NCBI GenBank assembly: GCA_964412905.1 | Contig: CAYPQL010000002.1 | Span: forward strand, 1 to 40,756 | Reading direction: 5' to 3' | Length of the DNA: 40,756 nt | Source: an uncultured Candidatus Saccharibacteria bacterium | Lineage (GTDB): Bacteria; Patescibacteriota; Minisyncoccia; JAHIHE01; JAGLIN01 | Shown here: piece by piece, positions 3,634-40,748 of the stretch | Layout of the letters: every line of letters begins with the position of its first letter | Position numbering within the stretch: the first letter of the stretch is position 1 | Made by a program: the position numbers and the translations under genes | The notes under the pieces: model-generated | What the model saw: only the letters and a program-made list of their open reading frames with translations | Told to the model about the DNA's origin: nothing | Databases searched by the model: none

Positions 3634-5793
3634 CTAAACCACAATATTAACCAGCCTCCCTTTCACAAATATCACTTTCTTAATTTCTTTCCCTTCAATC
3701 CATTTTTTTACTTTCTCGCTTTCAAGGGCGAGTTTTTTGGCGTCGGTTTCGGAAATATCCGCCATAACCTTGATTTGATCGCGGAGTTTGCCGTTGATTT
3801 GGACTACTAAAATTATTTCTTTTTCTTTGGCTAATTCCGGATTATATTCAGGCCATTTTTGCAAATGAATGCTTTCTTTATTTCCCAGCGCTTCCCAAAT
3901 TTCTTCCGTGATGTGCGGGGCGAAAGGAGAAATTAGAATTAAGAATTTTGAATAATGAATTTTGGATAAATTGGTTTTTTCTCCGCCTTCGGCGGATCCG
4001 CCATAGGCGGACATTTCATTAAGCAAAATCATCAAGGCGGATAGGGCGGTATTGAATTTGAGGTTTTCAATATCTTCTGTGACTTTTTTGATTGTCTTGT
4101 GCAATAATGATTCTAATTTGGAATTTTGACATTGGATATTTGATATTGATTTGACATTTGACATTTGACATTTGACATTCAAATTCCATATCCTTTCCAA
4201 AAACCTATTCATTCCGACTAAACTAGTTGTTGACCACGGGATCGCGTCGCCGTAAGGTCCCATAAACATTTCATAAAGACGCAAAGTGTCGGCGCCATAT
4301 TTTTTTATGACATCGTCCGGGTTGACGACATTGCCGCGAGACTTGCTCATTTTTTGCCCGTCTTCCGCCAAAATCATTCCGTGCGATCGTCTTTTCGCGT
4401 AAGGTTCGGCTGTGTTTACATAGCCGAGATCAAACAAAAACTTGTGCCAAAATCTGGAATATAGCAAATGCAAAGTGGTGTGTTCCATTCCGCCGTTATA
4501 CAAATCAACGGGCATCCAATAGTCTATTAACTTTTTTGAATTTTGAATTTTGAATTTTGAATTTTGAATTTTTTGCATTGCGTATGCGAGGTAATACCAG
4601 CTTGATCCTGCCCAATTCGGCATCGTGTCCGTTTCTCGTTTGGCGTCATTTTTACAAACAGGACATTTCACATTCACCCATTTTTTAATATTAGCGAGCG
4701 GAGACTCTCCAGTATCCGTCGGCTCGTAATTTTTAACATTCGGAAGCTCCAGCGGCAAATCTTTTTCGGAAAGGGGAATGTTTTTTTCCGTGTTTACTAT
4801 TTCAAACTCCCAGCCGACAAGCCCGTTTTTTTCAATTCTACTAAGATAGTCTTTCGTAAAGCTAAAACATTTTTTAAAATCATCAAAACTTTTAATTTTT
4901 ATTTCTGGAATAATATTTTTTATTAAACTTTTTTCTTTATAAAGCTCTTCTAAATTTTTGAAATTATAGACTTTATTGATTTTGACGATTTCAAATTCTC
5001 CGGTATTTTTATTGTTAAACTTGACGAAATCTCCAATTTTAATATTTCCAAAGTATTTATTTTTTTCCTCAGGATTCAAAGCTCTGGTTTCTATGGTTTT
5101 CTTGTTCTCTATGATTTGTTTCCATATATTCTGATCATAAAAACTCAATTCGTTTTTAATTTTTAAATCTTTCAATCCGCAATTCTCGCATTTCACAATC
5201 GGAATCGGCTCGCCCCAATAATGCTGACGAGAAAAGACCCAATCACGGAGCTTGTAATTTACAGCTTTTTTGCCGAGGTTGTCTTTGGAGAGCCAGTCGG
5301 TGATTTGTTCTTTAAATTCTTGTGTTGTTAATCCGTCGAATTTCCCAGAATTTATGGCAACACCATTTTCTGTTAATGCTTTTTCGCCATTTAAAAACGC
5401 ATCCCAGAAAATTTTTAATTCTTGCAGATTTAAAAAATTATTTACTTCATCTTTTTTTATCCAAAGCCCGTCGTGGTTTTTTATCTCTTCTTTTTTTGGC
5501 TCAACAAAACTATCGTCCAATAATTCAATATAAATGCAATTTCTTTCTAAATCATGGCGATTTACATCTTTATGCGCTGCAAAAAAACGACTGTGAATTG
5601 TATTTCCAATTTTTCTCACGACGCGCATATTTTGATAGCCGGATTCTTCTTTTGATTCTCTAATAGCCGCTTCTTCCGCAGTTTCTCCTTTTTCAATGCC
5701 GCCAACAATAAAAGTTTTCCAATCATTCTTGCTTTTACTCCAATCTAAACAGAAATACTCATCTTTATTCCAGTGTTTTATTATAACATCCAC
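3634..5793 (-). CDS. leuS: leucine--tRNA ligase, C-terminal segment (in frame with the N-terminal segment, separated from it by a single TAA)
   Basis: LeuRS hallmarks: VNYKLRDWVFSRQHYWGEPIPIV, the KMSKS loop (DGQKMSKSRGN) and a C-terminal anticodon-binding region. The frame is open continuously from nt 5877 down to the tracked GTG at 5793. Confidence 0.85.
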   Translation of the reverse strand: MDVIIKHWNKDEYFCLDWSKSKNDWKTFIVGGIEKGETAEEAAIRESKEESGYQNMRVVRKIGNTIHSRFFAAHKDVNRHDLERNCIYIELLDDSFVEPKKEEIKNHDGLWIKKDEVNNFLNLQELKIFWDAFLNGEKALTENGVAINSGKFDGLTTQEFKEQITDWLSKDNLGKKAVNYKLRDWVFSRQHYWGEPIPIVKCENCGLKDLKIKNELSFYDQNIWKQIIENKKTIETRALNPEEKNKYFGNIKIGDFVKFNNKNTGEFEIVKINKVYNFKNLEELYKEKSLIKNIIPEIKIKSFDDFKKCFSFTKDYLSRIEKNGLVGWEFEIVNTEKNIPLSEKDLPLELPNVKNYEPTDTGESPLANIKKWVNVKCPVCKNDAKRETDTMPNWAGSSWYYLAYAMQKIQNSKFKIQNSKKLIDYWMPVDLYNGGMEHTTLHLLYSRFWHKFLFDLGYVNTAEPYAKRRSHGMILAEDGQKMSKSRGNVVNPDDVIKKYGADTLRLYEMFMGPYGDAIPWSTTSLVGMNRFLERIWNLNVKCQMSNVKSISNIQCQNSKLESLLHKTIKKVTEDIENLKFNTALSALMILLNEMSAYGGSAEGGEKTNLSKIHYSKFLILISPFAPHITEEIWEALGNKESIHLQKWPEYNPELAKEKEIILVVQINGKLRDQIKVMADISETDAKKLALESEKVKKWIEGKEIKKVIFVKGRLVNIVV
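4150..4177. repeat. heptamer tandem array (TTTGACA x4) inside leuS
   Basis: Direct read. On the coding strand it encodes part of NVKCQMSNVKSISNIQCQ. Degenerate 7-mers extend upstream to about 4130. Confidence 0.9.
4544..4578. repeat. heptamer tandem array (TTTTGAA x5) inside leuS
   Basis: Direct read. Encodes [14 protein letters not shown] with a 7-aa period (3 units = 21 nt). Confidence 0.9.
4780..5175 (-). other. ASCH/PUA-like domain inserted in LeuRS
   Basis: About 130 extra residues lie between the conserved KCENCG and IPLSEKDLPLELP. The segment WKQIIENKKTIETRALNPEEKNKYFGNIKIGDFVKFNNKNTGEFEIVKINKVYNFKNLEEL...GLVGWEFEIV matches the remembered ASCH pattern (G-KT-E-R ... GD ... F ... sfeel ... 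vaieF). Confidence 0.5.
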
Positions 5794-5810
5794 GACTTTT
5801 CTTTCTGTAT
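5390..5810 (-). other. Nudix hydrolase domain inserted in LeuRS
   Basis: A near-perfect Nudix box, GGIEKGETAEEAAIRESKEESGY (nt 5703-5635), fits GX5EX7REUXEEXGU. It lies between the end of the CP1/editing region ([15 protein letters not shown]) and the conserved INSGKFDGL motif. Confidence 0.75.
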
Positions 5811-5877
5811 TTTCTTTATCTTTTCTAATTTTATTTTTTCCTTCACCAATGAATAATGGCGCTACAACTTGTACAAA

Positions 5878-7122
5878 TTACAAATTATACTTCCTCGCAA
5901 ACTCCCAATCTCTTTCATCATGCGCCGGCACGGCCATAATCGCGCCAGTGCCGTAACTCGCTAAAACATAATCCGCGACCCAGACTGGAATTTCTTCTCC
6001 GCTTGCGGGATTAGTTGCCTTAATTCCTTTCAATTCCACTCCCGTTTTTTCTTTCGCCAAATCAGTTCTGTCCAAGTCGGATTTGTTTTTCGCCTGCTCA
6101 ATATACTTTTCAACTTCATCGTAATTTGTAATTTGTAATTTGTAATTTGTAATTAGCTCGTGTTCCGGAGAAATAACCATATAAGTGCAACCGAATAAAG
6201 TATCCGGACGGGTGGTAAATACTTCTACGAAGAATTTTGAATTTTGAATTTTGAATTTTGAATTTATTTGATATTTGGAATTTGATATTTGGAATTTTAT
6301 CACCGCTCCTTCCGATTTGCCAATCCAATTAACTTGTTGTGTTTTGATTTTATCCAAATAATCAACCGTATCCAAATCTTTAATTAGTCTGTCCGCGTAT
6401 TTTGTGATGCGGAGCATCCATTGCTTCATTGTTTTTTTCTCCGCTTTAGCATGGCACCTTTCACATTCGCCCCCGACAACTTCTTCATTGGCTAATCCGA
6501 TTTTGCAGCTTGGGCACCAGTTTATAGACATCCTGGCTTCATAGGCTAATCTGCGCTCGTCAATATATTTATTTACGGAGCTCAACTCCGAGGCTTCGGA
6601 GCTAAGCTCCTTGTCTTTTTCTAAATCTTTCGGAATTTCCAACTCTTCAATCGGCCGCGCTTTATCCAGTTTCTCATCATAAAAACTATTGAATAATTTC
6701 AAAAAAATCCACTGCGTCCACTTGTAATATTCAGGATCAGTGGTGTTTATTTCCCGCGACCAATCAAAACTCGGGCCGTAGCTTTTGATCTGGCGAGTGA
6801 AATTTTTGACATTGTTTTTTGTGACGATTCTGGGGTGCGTCTTTGTCTTAATCGCGAAATTCTCCGTCGGCAATCCGAAAGCGTCCCAGCCGATCGGATA
6901 CATCACATTATATCCGCTCATTCGCTTTTTCCGCGCGACAATATCAATGGCGATATGGCTTCGCAAATGCCCCACATGAAGCCCCGCGCCAGAAGGGTAG
7001 GGGAATTCAATTAGGCAATAATACTTCGGCTTTTTTGAAAAATCCTCAGCACTATAAATCCCGCTCCTATCCCATTCCTTCTGCCACTTTTTCTCAATTT
7101 TCTTCGGATTGTATTTTTGCAT
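5878..7122 (-). CDS. leuS: leucine--tRNA ligase, N-terminal segment (ends at an in-frame TAA, 5880-5878)
   Basis: HIGH motif ([10 protein letters not shown]), a zinc-knuckle region ([13 protein letters not shown]), and editing-domain motifs TTRPDTLFG and [16 protein letters not shown]. Confidence 0.9.
6122..6156. repeat. heptamer tandem array (TAATTTG x4 plus one variant) inside leuS
   Basis: Direct read. Encodes [10 protein letters not shown]. Confidence 0.9.
6232..6298. repeat. compound tandem array (GAATTTT x4-5, then TTTGATATTTGGAA x2) inside leuS
   Basis: Direct read. Encodes [23 protein letters not shown]. Confidence 0.9.
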
Positions 7123-8409: not shown

Positions 8410-10068
8410 GCGCGGGAACAAGCTCTCGCCTTTTTTTATTTTCGCGCCATGTTTCAATCCGCCCCATTTTTGCGCTTCGGTTAAAGTTTTAGATAATTCT
8501 ACAGCCCTTTCTTTTCCGTCCGCAAACAATTGCGTAAATATTTTATCCGAAGTTTCGGGCATAAACGGGCGAATCATCCATGCGATATGGCGCAAGCTTT
8601 CTAGCAAATTATAAATCACTTTCGCTTTATCTTCCCCTTCCATCTGCCACGGCTTATTTTTTTCAATATATTCATCGCAACTGCTCATAAATTTTCTTGT
8701 CATTTCCAAAGCCTCGTTTAGTTTGAAATTATTTAAGGACTTTTCATAATCCAGCCAAGCATTTTTAATTGTAGTCTCAAATTCTAAATTTCCAATTTCC
8801 AATTTCCAATTTCCAATTTCTATTTTCTCCGCCATCGCCAAAACCCTTGCCGTTAAATTCCCCAGCCCGTTCGCCAGATCTGCTTGATAGATTTCCTCAA
8901 ATCTTTCGTAGGAAAAATCGCCGTCTCCGCCGGAGGGAATTTCTTTGAGGAGAAAATATCGCAAAGCGTCAACGCTTTTATATTTATTAACAACTTCAAA
9001 CGGATCAACAACATTGCCGATGGACTTGCTCATTTTTTGCCCGCCGGAAGTTATAAATCCGTGGACGAATATTTTTTTAGAGAGAGGCAGTTTCGCCGAT
9101 AAAAGCATCGCCGGCCAAATTGCGGCGTGAAATCTCAAAATATCTTTTCCGATTAAATGGATGTCTGCTGGCCAGTATTTTTGGAAATTAACTTGATTAT
9201 CAGACTGTTTAGGAATTGTCATTTCGAGCCCTCGCGAGAAATCTGAATTTTTAGAAATATCTGCGATTTTAGATTTCTCGCTGATGCTCGAAATGACAGG
9301 ATTTTTATTTTTCGCATAGTCTGGATTATCTCCATAACCCAGCGCGGAAATATAATTTGTAAGGGCGTCGCACCAAACATACATTGTCTGAGTTTCGTCG
9401 TCTGGAACCGGCACGCCCCAATCTAAAACGGTTTTGGACCTTGAGAAACTAATGTCTTTCAAGCCGATTTTAACAACATTAAGTATCTCATTTTTTCTGG
9501 ACTCCGGAACAATTTTCAATTCGTCGGATTCTATGAGTTTTTGAATTTTGTCCGAATATTTAGAAAGCTTAAAAAAATAATTTTCTTCCTTGATTTTCTC
9601 TGGCGCTTTTTGATGATTTGGGCAATTGCCATTAATCAAATCTTTTTCAGTGATATATTCCTCGCAGCCAACGCAATAATATCCTTCATAATTTGATTTA
9701 TAAATATCTCCCGCTTCAACAAGCTTCTTCCAAATTTTTTGCGCCGCCGGCCAATGGCGGATTTGATCGGTAGTTCTGATAAAATCGTCATTGGAAACAT
9801 TAAGCCTGTCCAATAACTCTCTGAACTTTACCGAATTTTTATCTACAAAATCCTGCGGCGCCATTTTATTTTTCTCCGCGGTTTTTTTTATTTTTGTGCC
9901 GTTTTCATCTGTTCCCGACAAAAAGAAAACATCCTCGCCAAGCAACCTATGGAACCTCGCCAAAACATCCGCCTGCAAAATTTCCAAAGCATACCCAATA
10001 TGCGGCGCGGCATTGGCATACGCGATTGAAGTGGTTATGTAGAATTTTTTTTGTTTAGGGGTTGACAT
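8401..10068 (-). CDS. metG: methionine--tRNA ligase
   Basis: HIGH-type motif (AAPHIGYALE), KMSKS (GGQKMSKSIGN), a CxxC..CPNH knuckle, and WPADIHLIGKDILRFHAAIWPAML. Confidence 0.93.
   Translation of the reverse strand: MSTPKQKKFYITTSIAYANAAPHIGYALEILQADVLARFHRLLGEDVFFLSGTDENGTKIKKTAEKNKMAPQDFVDKNSVKFRELLDRLNVSNDDFIRTTDQIRHWPAAQKIWKKLVEAGDIYKSNYEGYYCVGCEEYITEKDLINGNCPNHQKAPEKIKEENYFFKLSKYSDKIQKLIESDELKIVPESRKNEILNVVKIGLKDISFSRSKTVLDWGVPVPDDETQTMYVWCDALTNYISALGYGDNPDYAKNKNPVISSISEKSKIADISKNSDFSRGLEMTIPKQSDNQVNFQKYWPADIHLIGKDILRFHAAIWPAMLLSAKLPLSKKIFVHGFITSGGQKMSKSIGNVVDPFEVVNKYKSVDALRYFLLKEIPSGGDGDFSYERFEEIYQADLANGLGNLTARVLAMAEKIEIGNWKLEIGNLEFETTIKNAWLDYEKSLNNFKLNEALEMTRKFMSSCDEYIEKNKPWQMEGEDKAKVIYNLLESLRHIAWMIRPFMPETSDKIFTQLFADGKERAVELSKTLTEAQKWGGLKHGAKIKKGESLFPRLI
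8791..8825. repeat. heptamer tandem array (TCCAATT x4 plus one variant) inside metG
   Basis: Direct read. Encodes EIGNWKLEIGNLE on the coding strand. Confidence 0.9.
9217..9298. repeat. palindromic MITE-like element, family A, inside the metG reading frame
   Basis: TGTCATTTCGAGC..GCGAGAAATCT..AGATTTCTCGC..GCTCGAAATGACA. It is translated in frame as PVISSISEKSKIADISKNSDFSRGLEMT, just upstream of the conserved YWPADIHLIGKD block. Confidence 0.85.
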
Positions 10069-36664: not shown

Positions 36665-38537
36665 AAACAGAAAAGCTCTTGATATGGAAGAGTTTTTTTT
36701 AGACTCCGCGGCCAAGGACGGCGGCAGCATTGAGATTCCTTTGGACGATAAAAACATAAAAACATTCAAAAAAATATTTTTTCTTATTTTACTGGCGCTT
36801 GTTCTTCAAGCGGCGTATTTGCAAATAATAAAAGGAGAGCGTTACGCGGAGATTTCGGAAAATAATTATAAAAGAGCCGTTGCCATAAAATCTCCGAGAG
36901 GAATAATCTATGACAAATTCGGCAAGCAAATCGTTTATAATGTGCCGATTTTTGATCTCGTTATCATCCCGTCTGATTTTCTGAAAGATAAAAACAGCGT
37001 GAAGCAAAAAACGGAAAAGCTTTCCGAAATAACTGAGATGCCTAAAGATAATTTGGAAGATCAGATTAATAAGATGGACGGATTTTCATATCAGCCGGTT
37101 CTGGTTTTGGGGAATATAGAAAAAGACAAAGCGCTGATCATGGAAGAAAAGATAAAAGGAATTGACGGAGCGGAGCTTGAAAAAAACGCCGGACGAAATT
37201 ATATTGATGGCGAATATGTTTCAAACATAATAGGCTATAGCGGCAGAATAAATGAAACTGAATTAGAAAATTATCCCGGATATTTTCTTACTGATACGAT
37301 AGGAAAAGACGGGCTGGAATTGTTTTATGAAAAACGGCTCAGAGGGGAGTATGGGAAAGAAGAAATTGAAGTGGATTCTTTCGGGAAAAAAATAAGGACG
37401 GTAAAAAAAGAAGACCCTGTTTCCGGTGGTAATTTGATTTTGAATATGGATTTTGAATTGCAGAAAAAAATATATAATGAGCTGGAAAAAGTTATCACGG
37501 AAATCAAAACCGGAGCGGGAGCTTCCGTTGTTGCCATAAATCCGAAAAACGGCGCGGTTCTGGCGCTGGTTAATTTTCCTTCTTACGACAATAATCTTTT
37601 CGCAAAAGGCATAAGTTTCGGTGATTATAATAAATTGCTGAACGATAAAACCAGCCCGCTTTTTAATCGTTCAATTGCCGGGGAATATCCGCCGGGATCA
37701 ACTTTCAAAATGGCGGTCGGCGCCGGCGTTTTGCAGGAAAAAATTATATCTCCCAATTATAAAATAATTGATAAAGGGGTAATTTATGTCGGATCCTATT
37801 CTTTTTTGGGCTGGAAAGCGCTGGGCGCGGTTGATTTTATAAAGGCGGTTTCCCAGTCTTCCAATATTTATTTTTATACGGTCGGCGGAGGATACGGCGA
37901 AATAGAAGGACTGGGAGCTGAGAGAATTAAAAAATACGCGAAATTGTTCGGGTTTGGAAGCGCGCTGGGCATTGATCTTCCCGGAGAAAAATCGGGGCTT
38001 GTTCCGAACGAACAATGGAAAAAAGACACTAGAAATGAAATATGGTATATCGGAGACACTTATCATATGTCAATCGGACAAGGCGATGTTTTGGCGACCC
38101 CCCTTCAAGTCGCAAGCTATATCGCCGCGATTGCCAACGGCGGAAAATTATTTCAGCCGCAAGTGGTTGACAAGGTTATAGATTCTGAGGGAAATATAAT
38201 TGAAGACATAAATCCGAAAATAATCAGGGAAAATTTCATAGACGCGTTCAATTTGGAATGGATTCAAAAGGGAATGAGAGAAAATGTCGCGTCCGGTTCC
38301 GGAATAGCGCTCAAAGATTTGCAGTTTGAAGTTGCCGGAAAAACCGGAACCGCGCAATATTACGGCAATCAAAAAACGCATGCCTGGTATGTCGCATACG
38401 CTCCTTACAACGATCCTGAAATCGCTTTGGCAATTATAGTTGAAGGCGGAGGAGAAGGCCACACCACCGCCGTGCCGATCGCGAAGGAAGTTTTGAGGTG
38501 GTATTTTGAAACTAGGAAATTAGAAATTAGAAATTAG
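36636..38537 (+). CDS. mrdA: penicillin-binding protein 2 (elongasome transpeptidase)
   Basis: STFK (PPGSTFKM), SxN (SQSSN) and KTGT (AGKTGTAQ) motifs, plus an N-terminal TM anchor. The last residues (RKLEIRN) are encoded by a heptamer array. Confidence 0.92.
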   Translation: MKKDYFIKNKNRKALDMEEFFLDSAAKDGGSIEIPLDDKNIKTFKKIFFLILLALVLQAAYLQIIKGERYAEISENNYKRAVAIKSPRGIIYDKFGKQIVYNVPIFDLVIIPSDFLKDKNSVKQKTEKLSEITEMPKDNLEDQINKMDGFSYQPVLVLGNIEKDKALIMEEKIKGIDGAELEKNAGRNYIDGEYVSNIIGYSGRINETELENYPGYFLTDTIGKDGLELFYEKRLRGEYGKEEIEVDSFGKKIRTVKKEDPVSGGNLILNMDFELQKKIYNELEKVITEIKTGAGASVVAINPKNGAVLALVNFPSYDNNLFAKGISFGDYNKLLNDKTSPLFNRSIAGEYPPGSTFKMAVGAGVLQEKIISPNYKIIDKGVIYVGSYSFLGWKALGAVDFIKAVSQSSNIYFYTVGGGYGEIEGLGAERIKKYAKLFGFGSALGIDLPGEKSGLVPNEQWKKDTRNEIWYIGDTYHMSIGQGDVLATPLQVASYIAAIANGGKLFQPQVVDKVIDSEGNIIEDINPKIIRENFIDAFNLEWIQKGMRENVASGSGIALKDLQFEVAGKTGTAQYYGNQKTHAWYVAYAPYNDPEIALAIIVEGGGEGHTTAVPIAKEVLRWYFETRKLEIRN

Positions 38538-38549
38538 AAATTGGAGATG
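38515..38549. repeat. heptamer array (GAAATTA/TAGAAAT x4-5) spanning the mrdA stop
   Basis: Direct read. Same unit family as the arrays at 11052-11079 and (in complement) 8791-8825. Confidence 0.9.
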
Positions 38550-38590
38550 AAAAATAATAAATTATCTTGAATTGCGAAATGAGTTGAAAG

Positions 38591-40570: not shown

Positions 40571-40614
40571 TTTATTTAGGCTATAATGGGTTTGTTGCGG
40601 ACAGTGCAATAATA

Positions 40615-40661
40615 TACTTAATACTTAATACTTAATACTTAATACTTAATACTTAATACTT
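40615..40661. repeat. heptamer tandem array (TACTTAA x6-7) running into the alaS ATG
   Basis: Direct read. The last unit overlaps the start codon (TACTTATG). Confidence 0.92.
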
Positions 40662-40748
40662 ATGCTCACTTCCAAAGAACTTCGTAAAAAATATATTGAA
40701 TTTTTTAAAGATAAAAACCACAAGGAAATTCCGTCATATTTTACTTGA
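40662..40748 (+). pseudogene. alaS: alanine--tRNA ligase 5' end, interrupted at codon 29 (window edge)
   Basis: MLTSKELRKKYIEFFKDKNHKEIPS matches the AlaRS N-terminus, but the frame hits TGA at 40746-40748. A shifted frame reads ILLEDY, as expected for AlaRS, which suggests a 1-nt indel near 40737. Confidence 0.4.

Follow-up and report, generated by a model that had tools for sequence, protein, structure and literature searches.

Why should an aminoacyl-tRNA synthetase carry a Nudix hydrolase domain within its own editing domain, and what is to be made of a stop codon placed exactly where the two meet? Both questions are raised by the leucyl-tRNA synthetase (LeuRS) gene in a stretch of 40,756 nucleotides (contig CAYPQL010000002.1; here called the window, whose positions are used for all coordinates) from an uncultured Candidatus Saccharibacteria bacterium, a member of the tiny-genome Patescibacteria (candidate phyla radiation, CPR). 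Translation of the minus strand between 3634 and 7122 gives one reading frame of a bacterial-type LeuRS, with a Nudix module nested inside its editing domain (CP1). A Nudix domain inside LeuRS had been proposed in an initial annotation made from the sequence alone, and it is borne out here by the Pfam profile PF00293, by the Nudix box and by the fold, predicted with AlphaFold2 (AF2) and compared by Foldseek. The LeuRS-Nudix architecture is a conserved trait of Patescibacteria, not a rarity of the window. The gene is made up of the following parts (ORF, open reading frame):

5878-7122, minus strand: N-terminal ORF of LeuRS, 414 amino acids, with the first half of the Rossmann fold and most of CP1, ending in ...ARKYNL and TAA
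6967-6978, minus strand: HVGH (HIGH motif), within the N-terminal ORF
6199-6216, minus strand: TTRPDT (CP1 editing motif), within the N-terminal ORF
5908-5925, minus strand: AHDERD (CP1 editing motif), within the N-terminal ORF
5878-5880, minus strand: in-frame TAA between CP1 and the Nudix module, from translation and codon alignment with relatives
5362-5877, minus strand: Nudix module, 172 amino acids, FVQVVAPLFIGEG...ALTENG, delimited by Pfam, family alignment, AF2 and Foldseek
5635-5703, minus strand: Nudix box GGIEKGETAEEAAIRESKEESGY, module residues G59-Y81, with metal-binding E74, E77 and E78
3634-5361, minus strand: rest of LeuRS with a TAG stop, comprising the end of CP1 (INSGKFDGL...RDWVFSRQHYWGEPIPI), the second half of the catalytic core, the anticodon-binding and the C-terminal domains
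5224-5247, minus strand: RDWVFSRQ, in the LeuRS part 3' of the insert
4780-5175, minus strand: second in-frame insert, 132 amino acids, after the CENCG zinc knuckle
4339-4353, minus strand: KMSKS, in the second half of the catalytic core

The host protein is readily recognised. Pfam models PF00133, PF13603 (E=9.5e-52) and PF08264 all match the frame, with NUDIX between them, and the motifs of a bacterial-type LeuRS (HVGH, KMSKS, TTRPDT, AHDERD) are all present together with the anticodon-binding domain. The HIGH and KMSKS motifs, the CP1 motifs and the anticodon-binding and C-terminal domains are all shared with canonical LeuRS of known structure (Thermus thermophilus 1H3N/2BYT, E. coli 4AQ7/4ARC), whereas the window protein adds about 148 residues at the loop 363-373 (T. 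thermophilus numbering), the 132-amino-acid insert, a 47-amino-acid insert and several peptides encoded by heptamer repeats. Unlike a typical bacterial LeuRS gene, it is not a single uninterrupted coding sequence, having one in-frame TAA.

The profile search for PF00293, which the initial annotation had suggested as a check, scores 46.3 bits on the insert, well above the gathering score of 21.1 (E=5e-12; envelope 5437-5736). The box had been described as near-consensus, and GGIEKGETAEEAAIRESKEESGY indeed fits GX5EX7REUXEEXGU with a sole deviation, a Ser at the first U (the one after RE), where relatives have Ala or Ile. The catalytic Glu residues, whose possible substitution had been raised as a doubt, are present in the window. 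Beside the box, the module contains a family-specific N-terminal leader with an invariant R26, a KHW motif, an HKxxNR motif and W139. By profile, box and fold alike, it belongs to the Nudix superfamily.

The position of the insert is equally well defined. Positions 2-134 of the editing model PF13603 precede it and positions 152-184 follow it, which puts the module within CP1 and not behind it. In alignment with Thermus thermophilus LeuRS, residues 243-362 and 374-443 flank 159 window residues, which stand in place of the 11-residue loop 363-373 (about 148 net extra). The spacing from AHD to RDW is 229 residues in the window LeuRS and about 85 in that of E. coli. The earlier placement of the insert before INSGKFDGL thus stands, while its placement after the end of CP1 does not, as PF13603 flanks the insert on both sides; likewise the extent first given, 5390-5810 or about 140 residues, covers the core but falls short of the full module.

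The AF2 model of the window module, for which free-standing relatives served as alignment input, has pLDDT 93.9 and pTM 0.87. Foldseek relates it to Nudix structures with probability 1.0 (TMt up to 0.81); at E<=1e-3 it finds 506 PDB matches, of which those listed are Nudix proteins without exception. A full-length homologue (P0032), 56% identical to the window protein and containing both the Nudix and the second insert, was modelled with pLDDT 85 and pTM 0.78, its Nudix segment reaching pLDDT of about 84-93. Superposed on E. coli and T. thermophilus LeuRS, this model gives target-normalised TM of 0.83-0.86; as modelled, the Nudix module forms a folded protrusion from an intact LeuRS scaffold. 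An intein or other self-splicing insert was considered and rejected: NUDIX is the sole domain found by Pfam in the insert, with no Hint or homing-endonuclease domain, the insert is under host-like purifying selection and, in the model, folds as a projecting part of the mature protein. An intron is rejected on the same Hint result and because each flank aligns with relatives codon for codon.

Conservation points to a module under constraint. In LeuRS-embedded copies the catalytic Glu residues are retained at E74 in 102 of 103, at E77 in 100 of 103 and at E78 in all 103, and over 152 family copies, variants included, the three are about 99% conserved. R26, K103, N106, R107 and W139 are nearly invariant. 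Ratios of nonsynonymous to synonymous substitution (dN/dS) among close relatives are 0.09-0.14 for the module and 0.06-0.11 for the LeuRS core, and similarly low on the window's own lineage; these values are approximate because dS is near saturation.

The survey of orthologues at the same insertion point, another check named in the initial annotation, was made by scanning one genome per species for the motifs KHW[NE]KDE and R[KE]DKENTE, a limitation that makes the scan an undercount. It yielded 43 species-level loci, most of them labelled Patescibacteria, with labels including Moranbacteria, Parcubacteria/Paceibacterota, Taylorbacteria, Nomurabacteria, Saccharibacteria and Gracilibacteria; two short contigs with other phylum labels are probably mis-binned. 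Every one of the 43 has a Nudix match at the same position of the LeuRS ORF, with an AHD-to-RDW spacing of 221-244 residues, and the ORFs are mostly continuous, several being cut by contig ends.

A word-indexed protein search had given only one and then 12 relatives, and the exhaustive search and genome scan were required to reveal the family. The exhaustive, profile-free search of 1.84 billion representatives, clustered at 50% identity, found 384 family clusters at E<=1e-3, of which 181 also pass E<=1e-10. Among the best 150 of the 384, 98 have LeuRS sequence, 13 of these with two or three Nudix copies, the extra ones located at a second LeuRS site that immediately precedes CP1; some 30 are free-standing, with a length of 150-210 amino acids; and one is an archaeal-type prolyl-tRNA synthetase (ProRS; P0078, 643 amino acids) with the module between the anticodon-binding and C-terminal domains. 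Five short proteins (P0024, P0093, P0054, P0117, P0125) resemble fragments of an anticodon-binding domain plus Nudix. The Nudix box of ProRS-linked copies is one residue shorter, with Lys, Asn or Asp in place of Arg. Because the family is fused to synthetases of both classes, I and II, it can be linked functionally to aminoacylation by "Rosetta stone" reasoning.

The free-standing copies, labelled "NUDIX hydrolase" in Candidatus Paceibacterota, share with the insert the leader xFxGxGxxxxRxDxPxxER, and what was inserted therefore amounts to the product of an entire gene. By sequence similarity, copies from the two LeuRS sites (A and B) and free-standing ones are interleaved, not separated. The neighbourhoods of two free-standing copies were uninformative save for one adjacent alpha/beta-hydrolase gene: in locus L048 (131-1446), free-standing P0153 lies 66 nucleotides downstream of it on the same strand, a pair that echoes the combination of Nudix and Ser-hydrolase inside some LeuRS. 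One free-standing copy adjoins a gene for an RRM-domain protein.

We propose that a free-standing-type Nudix pyrophosphohydrolase was anciently inserted, in frame, into a CP1 loop of LeuRS that lies at the surface towards the C-terminal end of the domain and is equivalent to T. thermophilus residues 363-373, and that the insert has since been inherited across Patescibacteria. The module would form an independent Nudix domain projecting from an otherwise normal bacterial LeuRS. With all three Mg2+-binding Glu residues retained, the module most probably hydrolyses some nucleoside-polyphosphate compound. Adenylate-forming synthetases yield dinucleoside polyphosphates as by-products, and these (Ap4A, Ap3A, ApnN) are the candidate substrates; the tether to the synthetase might provide constitutive one-to-one expression and local clearance.

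The case for such a substrate comes from matches to known enzymes, from the X-loop and from the independent fusions to LeuRS and ProRS, which together make the ApnA type the best single guess, and the initial suggestion of Ap4A a plausible one. In a profile search of PDB with the family, lupin Ap4A hydrolase 1F3Y is best (E=4e-7), followed by AvrM14 (a decapping effector), Aquifex Ap4A hydrolase, NudC/NUDT12 and Dcp2. The structure search is led by 2AZW, a MutT/Nudix family protein; after it come Aquifex Ap4A hydrolase 3I7U, E. coli RppH, Thermus Ndx1 (an Ap6A hydrolase), C. elegans Ap4A hydrolase 1KTG, mycobacterial MutT1 and Rv2985, and CT771, an Ap4A hydrolase of Chlamydia, with NudI and CTP pyrophosphohydrolase also ranking high. 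ApnA hydrolases (1F3Y; aq_158, 3I7U; 1KTG; Ndx1, 1VC8) share fold and box with the module and rank among its best profile and structure matches; they are also of similar size (about 135-165 amino acids) and have an aromatic X-loop residue about 17 positions after the box. They differ in being free-standing enzymes, whereas the module is embedded in a synthetase and has its own leader, KHW/KHP and HKxxNR motifs, a Phe-Phe instead of Tyr in the window and 15-21% identity to them.

Signature residues that distinguish Nudix subfamilies were compared as well. ApnA hydrolases are described, in the passage of PMC5389931 that quotes Dunn et al. (1999), as having an X-loop Tyr some 16-18 positions past the box. 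Across the family, positions +17/+18 form an F/Y pair: Tyr occupies +17 in 33 of 152 copies and +18 in 78 of 152, and Phe is found otherwise. ADP-ribose pyrophosphatases (ADPRases) are marked by a Pro 15-16 residues after the box and NADH pyrophosphatase (NudC) by SQPWPFPxS after the box (both PMC5389931); neither the Pro at +15 or +16 nor the NADH motif occurs in any of the 152 family copies. Against the RppH equivalogs NF001934-NF001938, which are the top NCBIfam matches, the best score is 30.9 bits, below the cut-off of 118. By these sequence signatures the module falls outside the ADPRase, NudC and RppH-equivalog groups.

Several points weigh against our proposal. Identity to characterised enzymes of any kind lies in the same 15-21% range, and the scores of decapping, NTPase and MutT-type enzymes are nearly as good; no NCBIfam equivalog threshold is reached by the module; and the window X-loop reads Phe-Phe at +17/+18, with no Tyr. 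About 14% of copies, embedded as well as free-standing, have co-varying E65Q and R73A/M in the box, which we read as loss of a structural salt bridge with the catalytic residue kept, E65 and R73 presumably pairing as in MutT. Sister LeuRS carry unrelated Ham1, HAD and Ser-hydrolase inserts at other loops. Finally, the TAA of the window, if real and not bypassed, would block synthesis of the fused protein. Taken as a whole, an ApnA-type Nudix inserted on LeuRS, with a window stop that did not evolve as a split, has in our judgement somewhat less than an even chance of being right.

The foremost competitor holds that the Nudix domain is a house-cleaning passenger, a general nucleotide-pool sanitiser of MutT or NTP-pyrophosphatase type with no mechanistic link to leucylation, LeuRS being a permissive and constitutively expressed carrier in whose surface loops the small hydrolase genes of tiny genomes are lodged. 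Other enzymes do occupy related LeuRS: a Ham1/ITPase (PF01725, E=3e-58) is inserted in the anticodon-binding region of L003, L006 and P0016, the last 70% identical to the window protein; a HAD_2 phosphatase follows the second zinc knuckle of P0087; and a Ser_hydrolase/alpha-beta hydrolase precedes CP1 in P0010 and P0012. All of these LeuRS also hold one to three Nudix copies. Such inserts suggest that the Nudix need not have a specific connection with LeuRS chemistry; in these organisms LeuRS resembles an all-purpose carrier for small enzymes, most of them nucleotide-sanitising, of which the Nudix is maybe the oldest passenger. The top rank of 2AZW in Foldseek and the high ones of MutT1, NudI and CTP pyrophosphohydrolase agree with a sanitiser, as do the existence of free-standing copies of the same family in Paceibacterota and their interleaving with site-A and site-B copies. 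Yet the Nudix insert is far commoner and older than the other inserts, its two sites flanking CP1, up to three copies and presence in ProRS exceed what random passenger capture would give, and its best sequence-profile matches are ApnA hydrolases, not MutT. We hold mere carriage to be doubtful, though by no means negligible.

The second alternative concerns the window only: the TAA is real, and LeuRS is made in two pieces (414 amino acids plus a Nudix-LeuRS C-terminal piece), or the gene has only lately become a pseudogene or represents a minority strain variant. The initial annotation had hinted at an interrupted frame with its term "read-through", without stating the TAA at 5878-5880, which directly follows ...ARKYNL and directly precedes the first module residue. 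It is the single stop in a frame otherwise collinear with relatives. At its site relatives have GAG, GAA, GAT or CCG (Glu, Asp or Pro), and where their sequence is TTG GAG ATA AGA CAA the window has TTG TAA TTT GTA CAA, a change of six of nine bases at equal length. Two repeat arrays are involved:

5872-5887, no strand assigned: heptamer mini-array TACAAAT x2.3, which holds the stop codon and is an inverted copy of part of the 6121-6154 array
6121-6154, no strand assigned: GTAATTT x4.9, a perfect heptamer array within LeuRS coding sequence

The 16-mer at 5872-5887 is an exact inverted copy of sequence within the second array, 235 nucleotides upstream (four matches against zero expected). Because of this exact inverted copy, the change would be a single templated, template-switch-like event and not scattered errors or random sequencing noise, with the 6121-6154 array as its likely template; our proposal, too, takes the TAA as a template-switch-like mutation within a heptamer repeat, which would have struck at the N-terminal boundary of the module.

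Reassignment of the codon was ruled out: TAA terminates 16 of the 26 long ORFs in the window and is thus the usual stop, therefore recoding is no explanation. The matter is otherwise in Gracilibacteria, where TGA codes for Gly. In locus L013 of that lineage (5920-6252), TGA codons alone interrupt the LeuRS-Nudix frame when table 11 is applied, which is consistent with the lineage's code and not with a split gene.

A natural split has a precedent in the heterodimeric alpha/beta LeuRS of Aquifex aeolicus (PDB 3O0A and 3PZ5, "subunit alpha"). That enzyme is divided elsewhere, after the catalytic core, and is encoded by two genes, each with its own start; the window, in contrast, has one stop, shared with no relative, in an otherwise continuous frame. 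The ORF scan of the window finds no ATG downstream of the TAA and a single start there, GTG at 5793, use of which would remove the module leader including the invariant R26. An Aquifex-type split was rejected on this loss of conserved residues, on the lack of an ATG past the stop and on the lack of any split relative. Initiation signals are difficult to judge, as window genes are without Shine-Dalgarno motifs: in the 25 nucleotides upstream of 25 long-ORF start codons, none has a recognisable one, and the leaders are AT-rich, which suggests Shine-Dalgarno-independent initiation in this organism.

Nor is there a sign of decay 3' of the stop, where dN/dS against relatives is as low as in stop-free lineages. 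Among about 50 relatives, with several loci ending at contig edges, no other has a stop at the CP1-Nudix junction. A recurrent natural split was at first suggested by P0085, P0127 and P0108, which appeared to begin with the Nudix, yet their loci hold continuous LeuRS ORFs; P0010, another candidate, merely stops at a contig edge. The public gene calls P0127 and P0108 (loci L051 and L052) begin at an internal Met at the start of the Nudix module, while the LeuRS ORFs there are continuous for 907 and 952 amino acids; these multi-insert synthetases appear to have been mis-called as fragments, an error to which such genes are easily subject in annotation. LeuRS is essential, and the window has no second copy of it. 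Two metagenome DNA scans with the stop-flanking sequence found no second assembly of the window species, and exact-sequence look-ups of both window ORFs gave no recorded match. We conclude that the window stop did not evolve as a split and is an assembly artefact, a strain variant or a lesion of very recent date; a genuinely broken or two-piece gene in this organism is unlikely.

A third alternative would make the module an enzyme of RNA or tRNA ends, similar to RppH, NudC or Dcp2, acting on a 5'-triphosphate, an NAD cap or a tRNA(Leu) terminus, pyrophosphorylated or blocked in another way, presented by LeuRS. The CP1 domain receives the tRNA 3' end, and both recurrent insertion sites flank it. 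AvrM14, NudC, NUDT12, Dcp2 and E. coli RppH (with or without RNA) are among the best sequence or structure matches, RppH models lead the NCBIfam ones, and the RRM-domain neighbour of one free-standing copy fits as well. E. coli RppH (NudH/YgdP; 4S2X, 6VCP, 7SP3) is indeed a high-ranking structural neighbour. It is an RNA pyrophosphohydrolase that also hydrolyses ApnA, and its partner is DapF, not a synthetase; as RppH is itself an ApnA hydrolase, matches to it do not separate the two readings. Against an RNA-end role stand the equivalog score (31 against 118 bits, far under the cut-off), the lack of an RNA-binding extension in the free-standing copies and the module itself, in which, unlike RppH, no RNA-binding features were identified. 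We think this role quite unlikely.

Least probable of all, and very unlikely in our view, is a non-catalytic module, a Nudix fold kept as structural prop or nucleotide sensor that modulates editing or aminoacylation. In its favour, non-enzymatic Nudix proteins are known (PMC5389931), a Moranbacteria-type subset, embedded and free-standing, has GX5E Glu changed to Gln and the box Arg to Ala, Thr, Asn or Met, and ProRS-linked copies have a shortened box. Against it, E74/E77/E78 remain about 99% conserved even in variants, strong purifying selection acts on the whole module, and the joint E65Q and R73A change is in our reading the loss of a presumed salt bridge.

An inserted ApnA-type hydrolase has a known parallel in NadM-Nudix (NF003790), which joins NMN adenylyltransferase and ADP-ribose pyrophosphatase by terminal fusion in one chain (PMC7824862). 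In both cases an enzyme of the HIGH superfamily is joined to a Nudix domain acting, or in LeuRS perhaps acting, on a product related to adenylyl transfer. The arrangement differs: NadM-Nudix is a terminal fusion with ADPRase signatures, whereas the LeuRS module is nested in a loop and is without the ADPRase Pro. Class I synthetases belong to the HIGH superfamily. Extra domains of eukaryotic synthetases are also well known, but mostly as terminal, non-catalytic appendages; here, by contrast, what would be a complete second enzyme sits within the editing domain of bacterial LeuRS and is conserved across much of Patescibacteria. Full-text literature searches found no paper on a Nudix domain in LeuRS or ProRS; LeuRS proteins with Nudix are already public and carry automatic Pfam labels, and the architecture is undescribed in the literature searched. 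It offers a concrete test of how cells control Ap4A made by synthetases and bears on how reduced genomes keep accessory enzymes expressed. It may also belong to a wider habit of minimal-genome organisms, in which house-cleaning hydrolases (Nudix, Ham1, HAD, alpha/beta-hydrolase) are packed into the loops of one essential protein.

A bolder picture, to which we assign a low probability, would see patescibacterial synthetases as a platform for nucleotide-hydrolysing domains that act in cis with aminoacylation. The Nudix would then be a third hydrolytic site in addition to those of synthesis and editing, and its two sites around CP1, its multiplication to as many as three copies and its separate arrival in ProRS would all be instances of repeated recruitment. 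If so, the Nudix would destroy adenylate-derived products, such as Ap4A/ApnN and perhaps non-cognate or toxic mimics of aminoacyl-adenylate, or repair the tRNA acceptor end, and heptamer tracts at variable loops would be hot spots of recombination or template switching for both the cassettes and the window stop.

The 132-amino-acid insert (LKDLKIK...TIETRALNPEE...KNGLVGWEFE, with motifs KTIETRALNPEE and GNIKIGD) also occurs in L001, P0016 and P0032 but is missing from L003-L006. Neither Pfam nor a sequence-profile search of PDB gave a match to it, and a first impression of an ASCH/PUA-like domain found no support in these searches; its region in the P0032 model has pLDDT of about 65-86. At 6550-6690 (minus strand) lies the 47-amino-acid insert in the catalytic domain, clade-specific, acidic and helical-looking, of which shorter versions occur in L001-L006 and P0016 and which is absent from more distant relatives.

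Heptamer repeats are distributed over the window as follows:

4534-4572, 5872-5887, 6121-6154 and 6232-6297: in LeuRS
8787-8827: in methionyl-tRNA synthetase (MetRS)
38516-38564 and 40614-40662: further heptamer repeats

They are perfect or near-perfect, lie in coding sequence and have units such as TTTTGAA, GTAATTT, GAATTTT, AATTTCC and ATACTTA; several arrays are of about 4.9 copies, or 34 nucleotides. They occur at loops that hold variable inserts in relatives, including the site of extra Nudix/Ham1 domains. The encoded peptides include EIGNWKLEIGN, and similar QISNSK/ISNFQF peptides are found in the distant relatives L001, L007, L052 and P0032.

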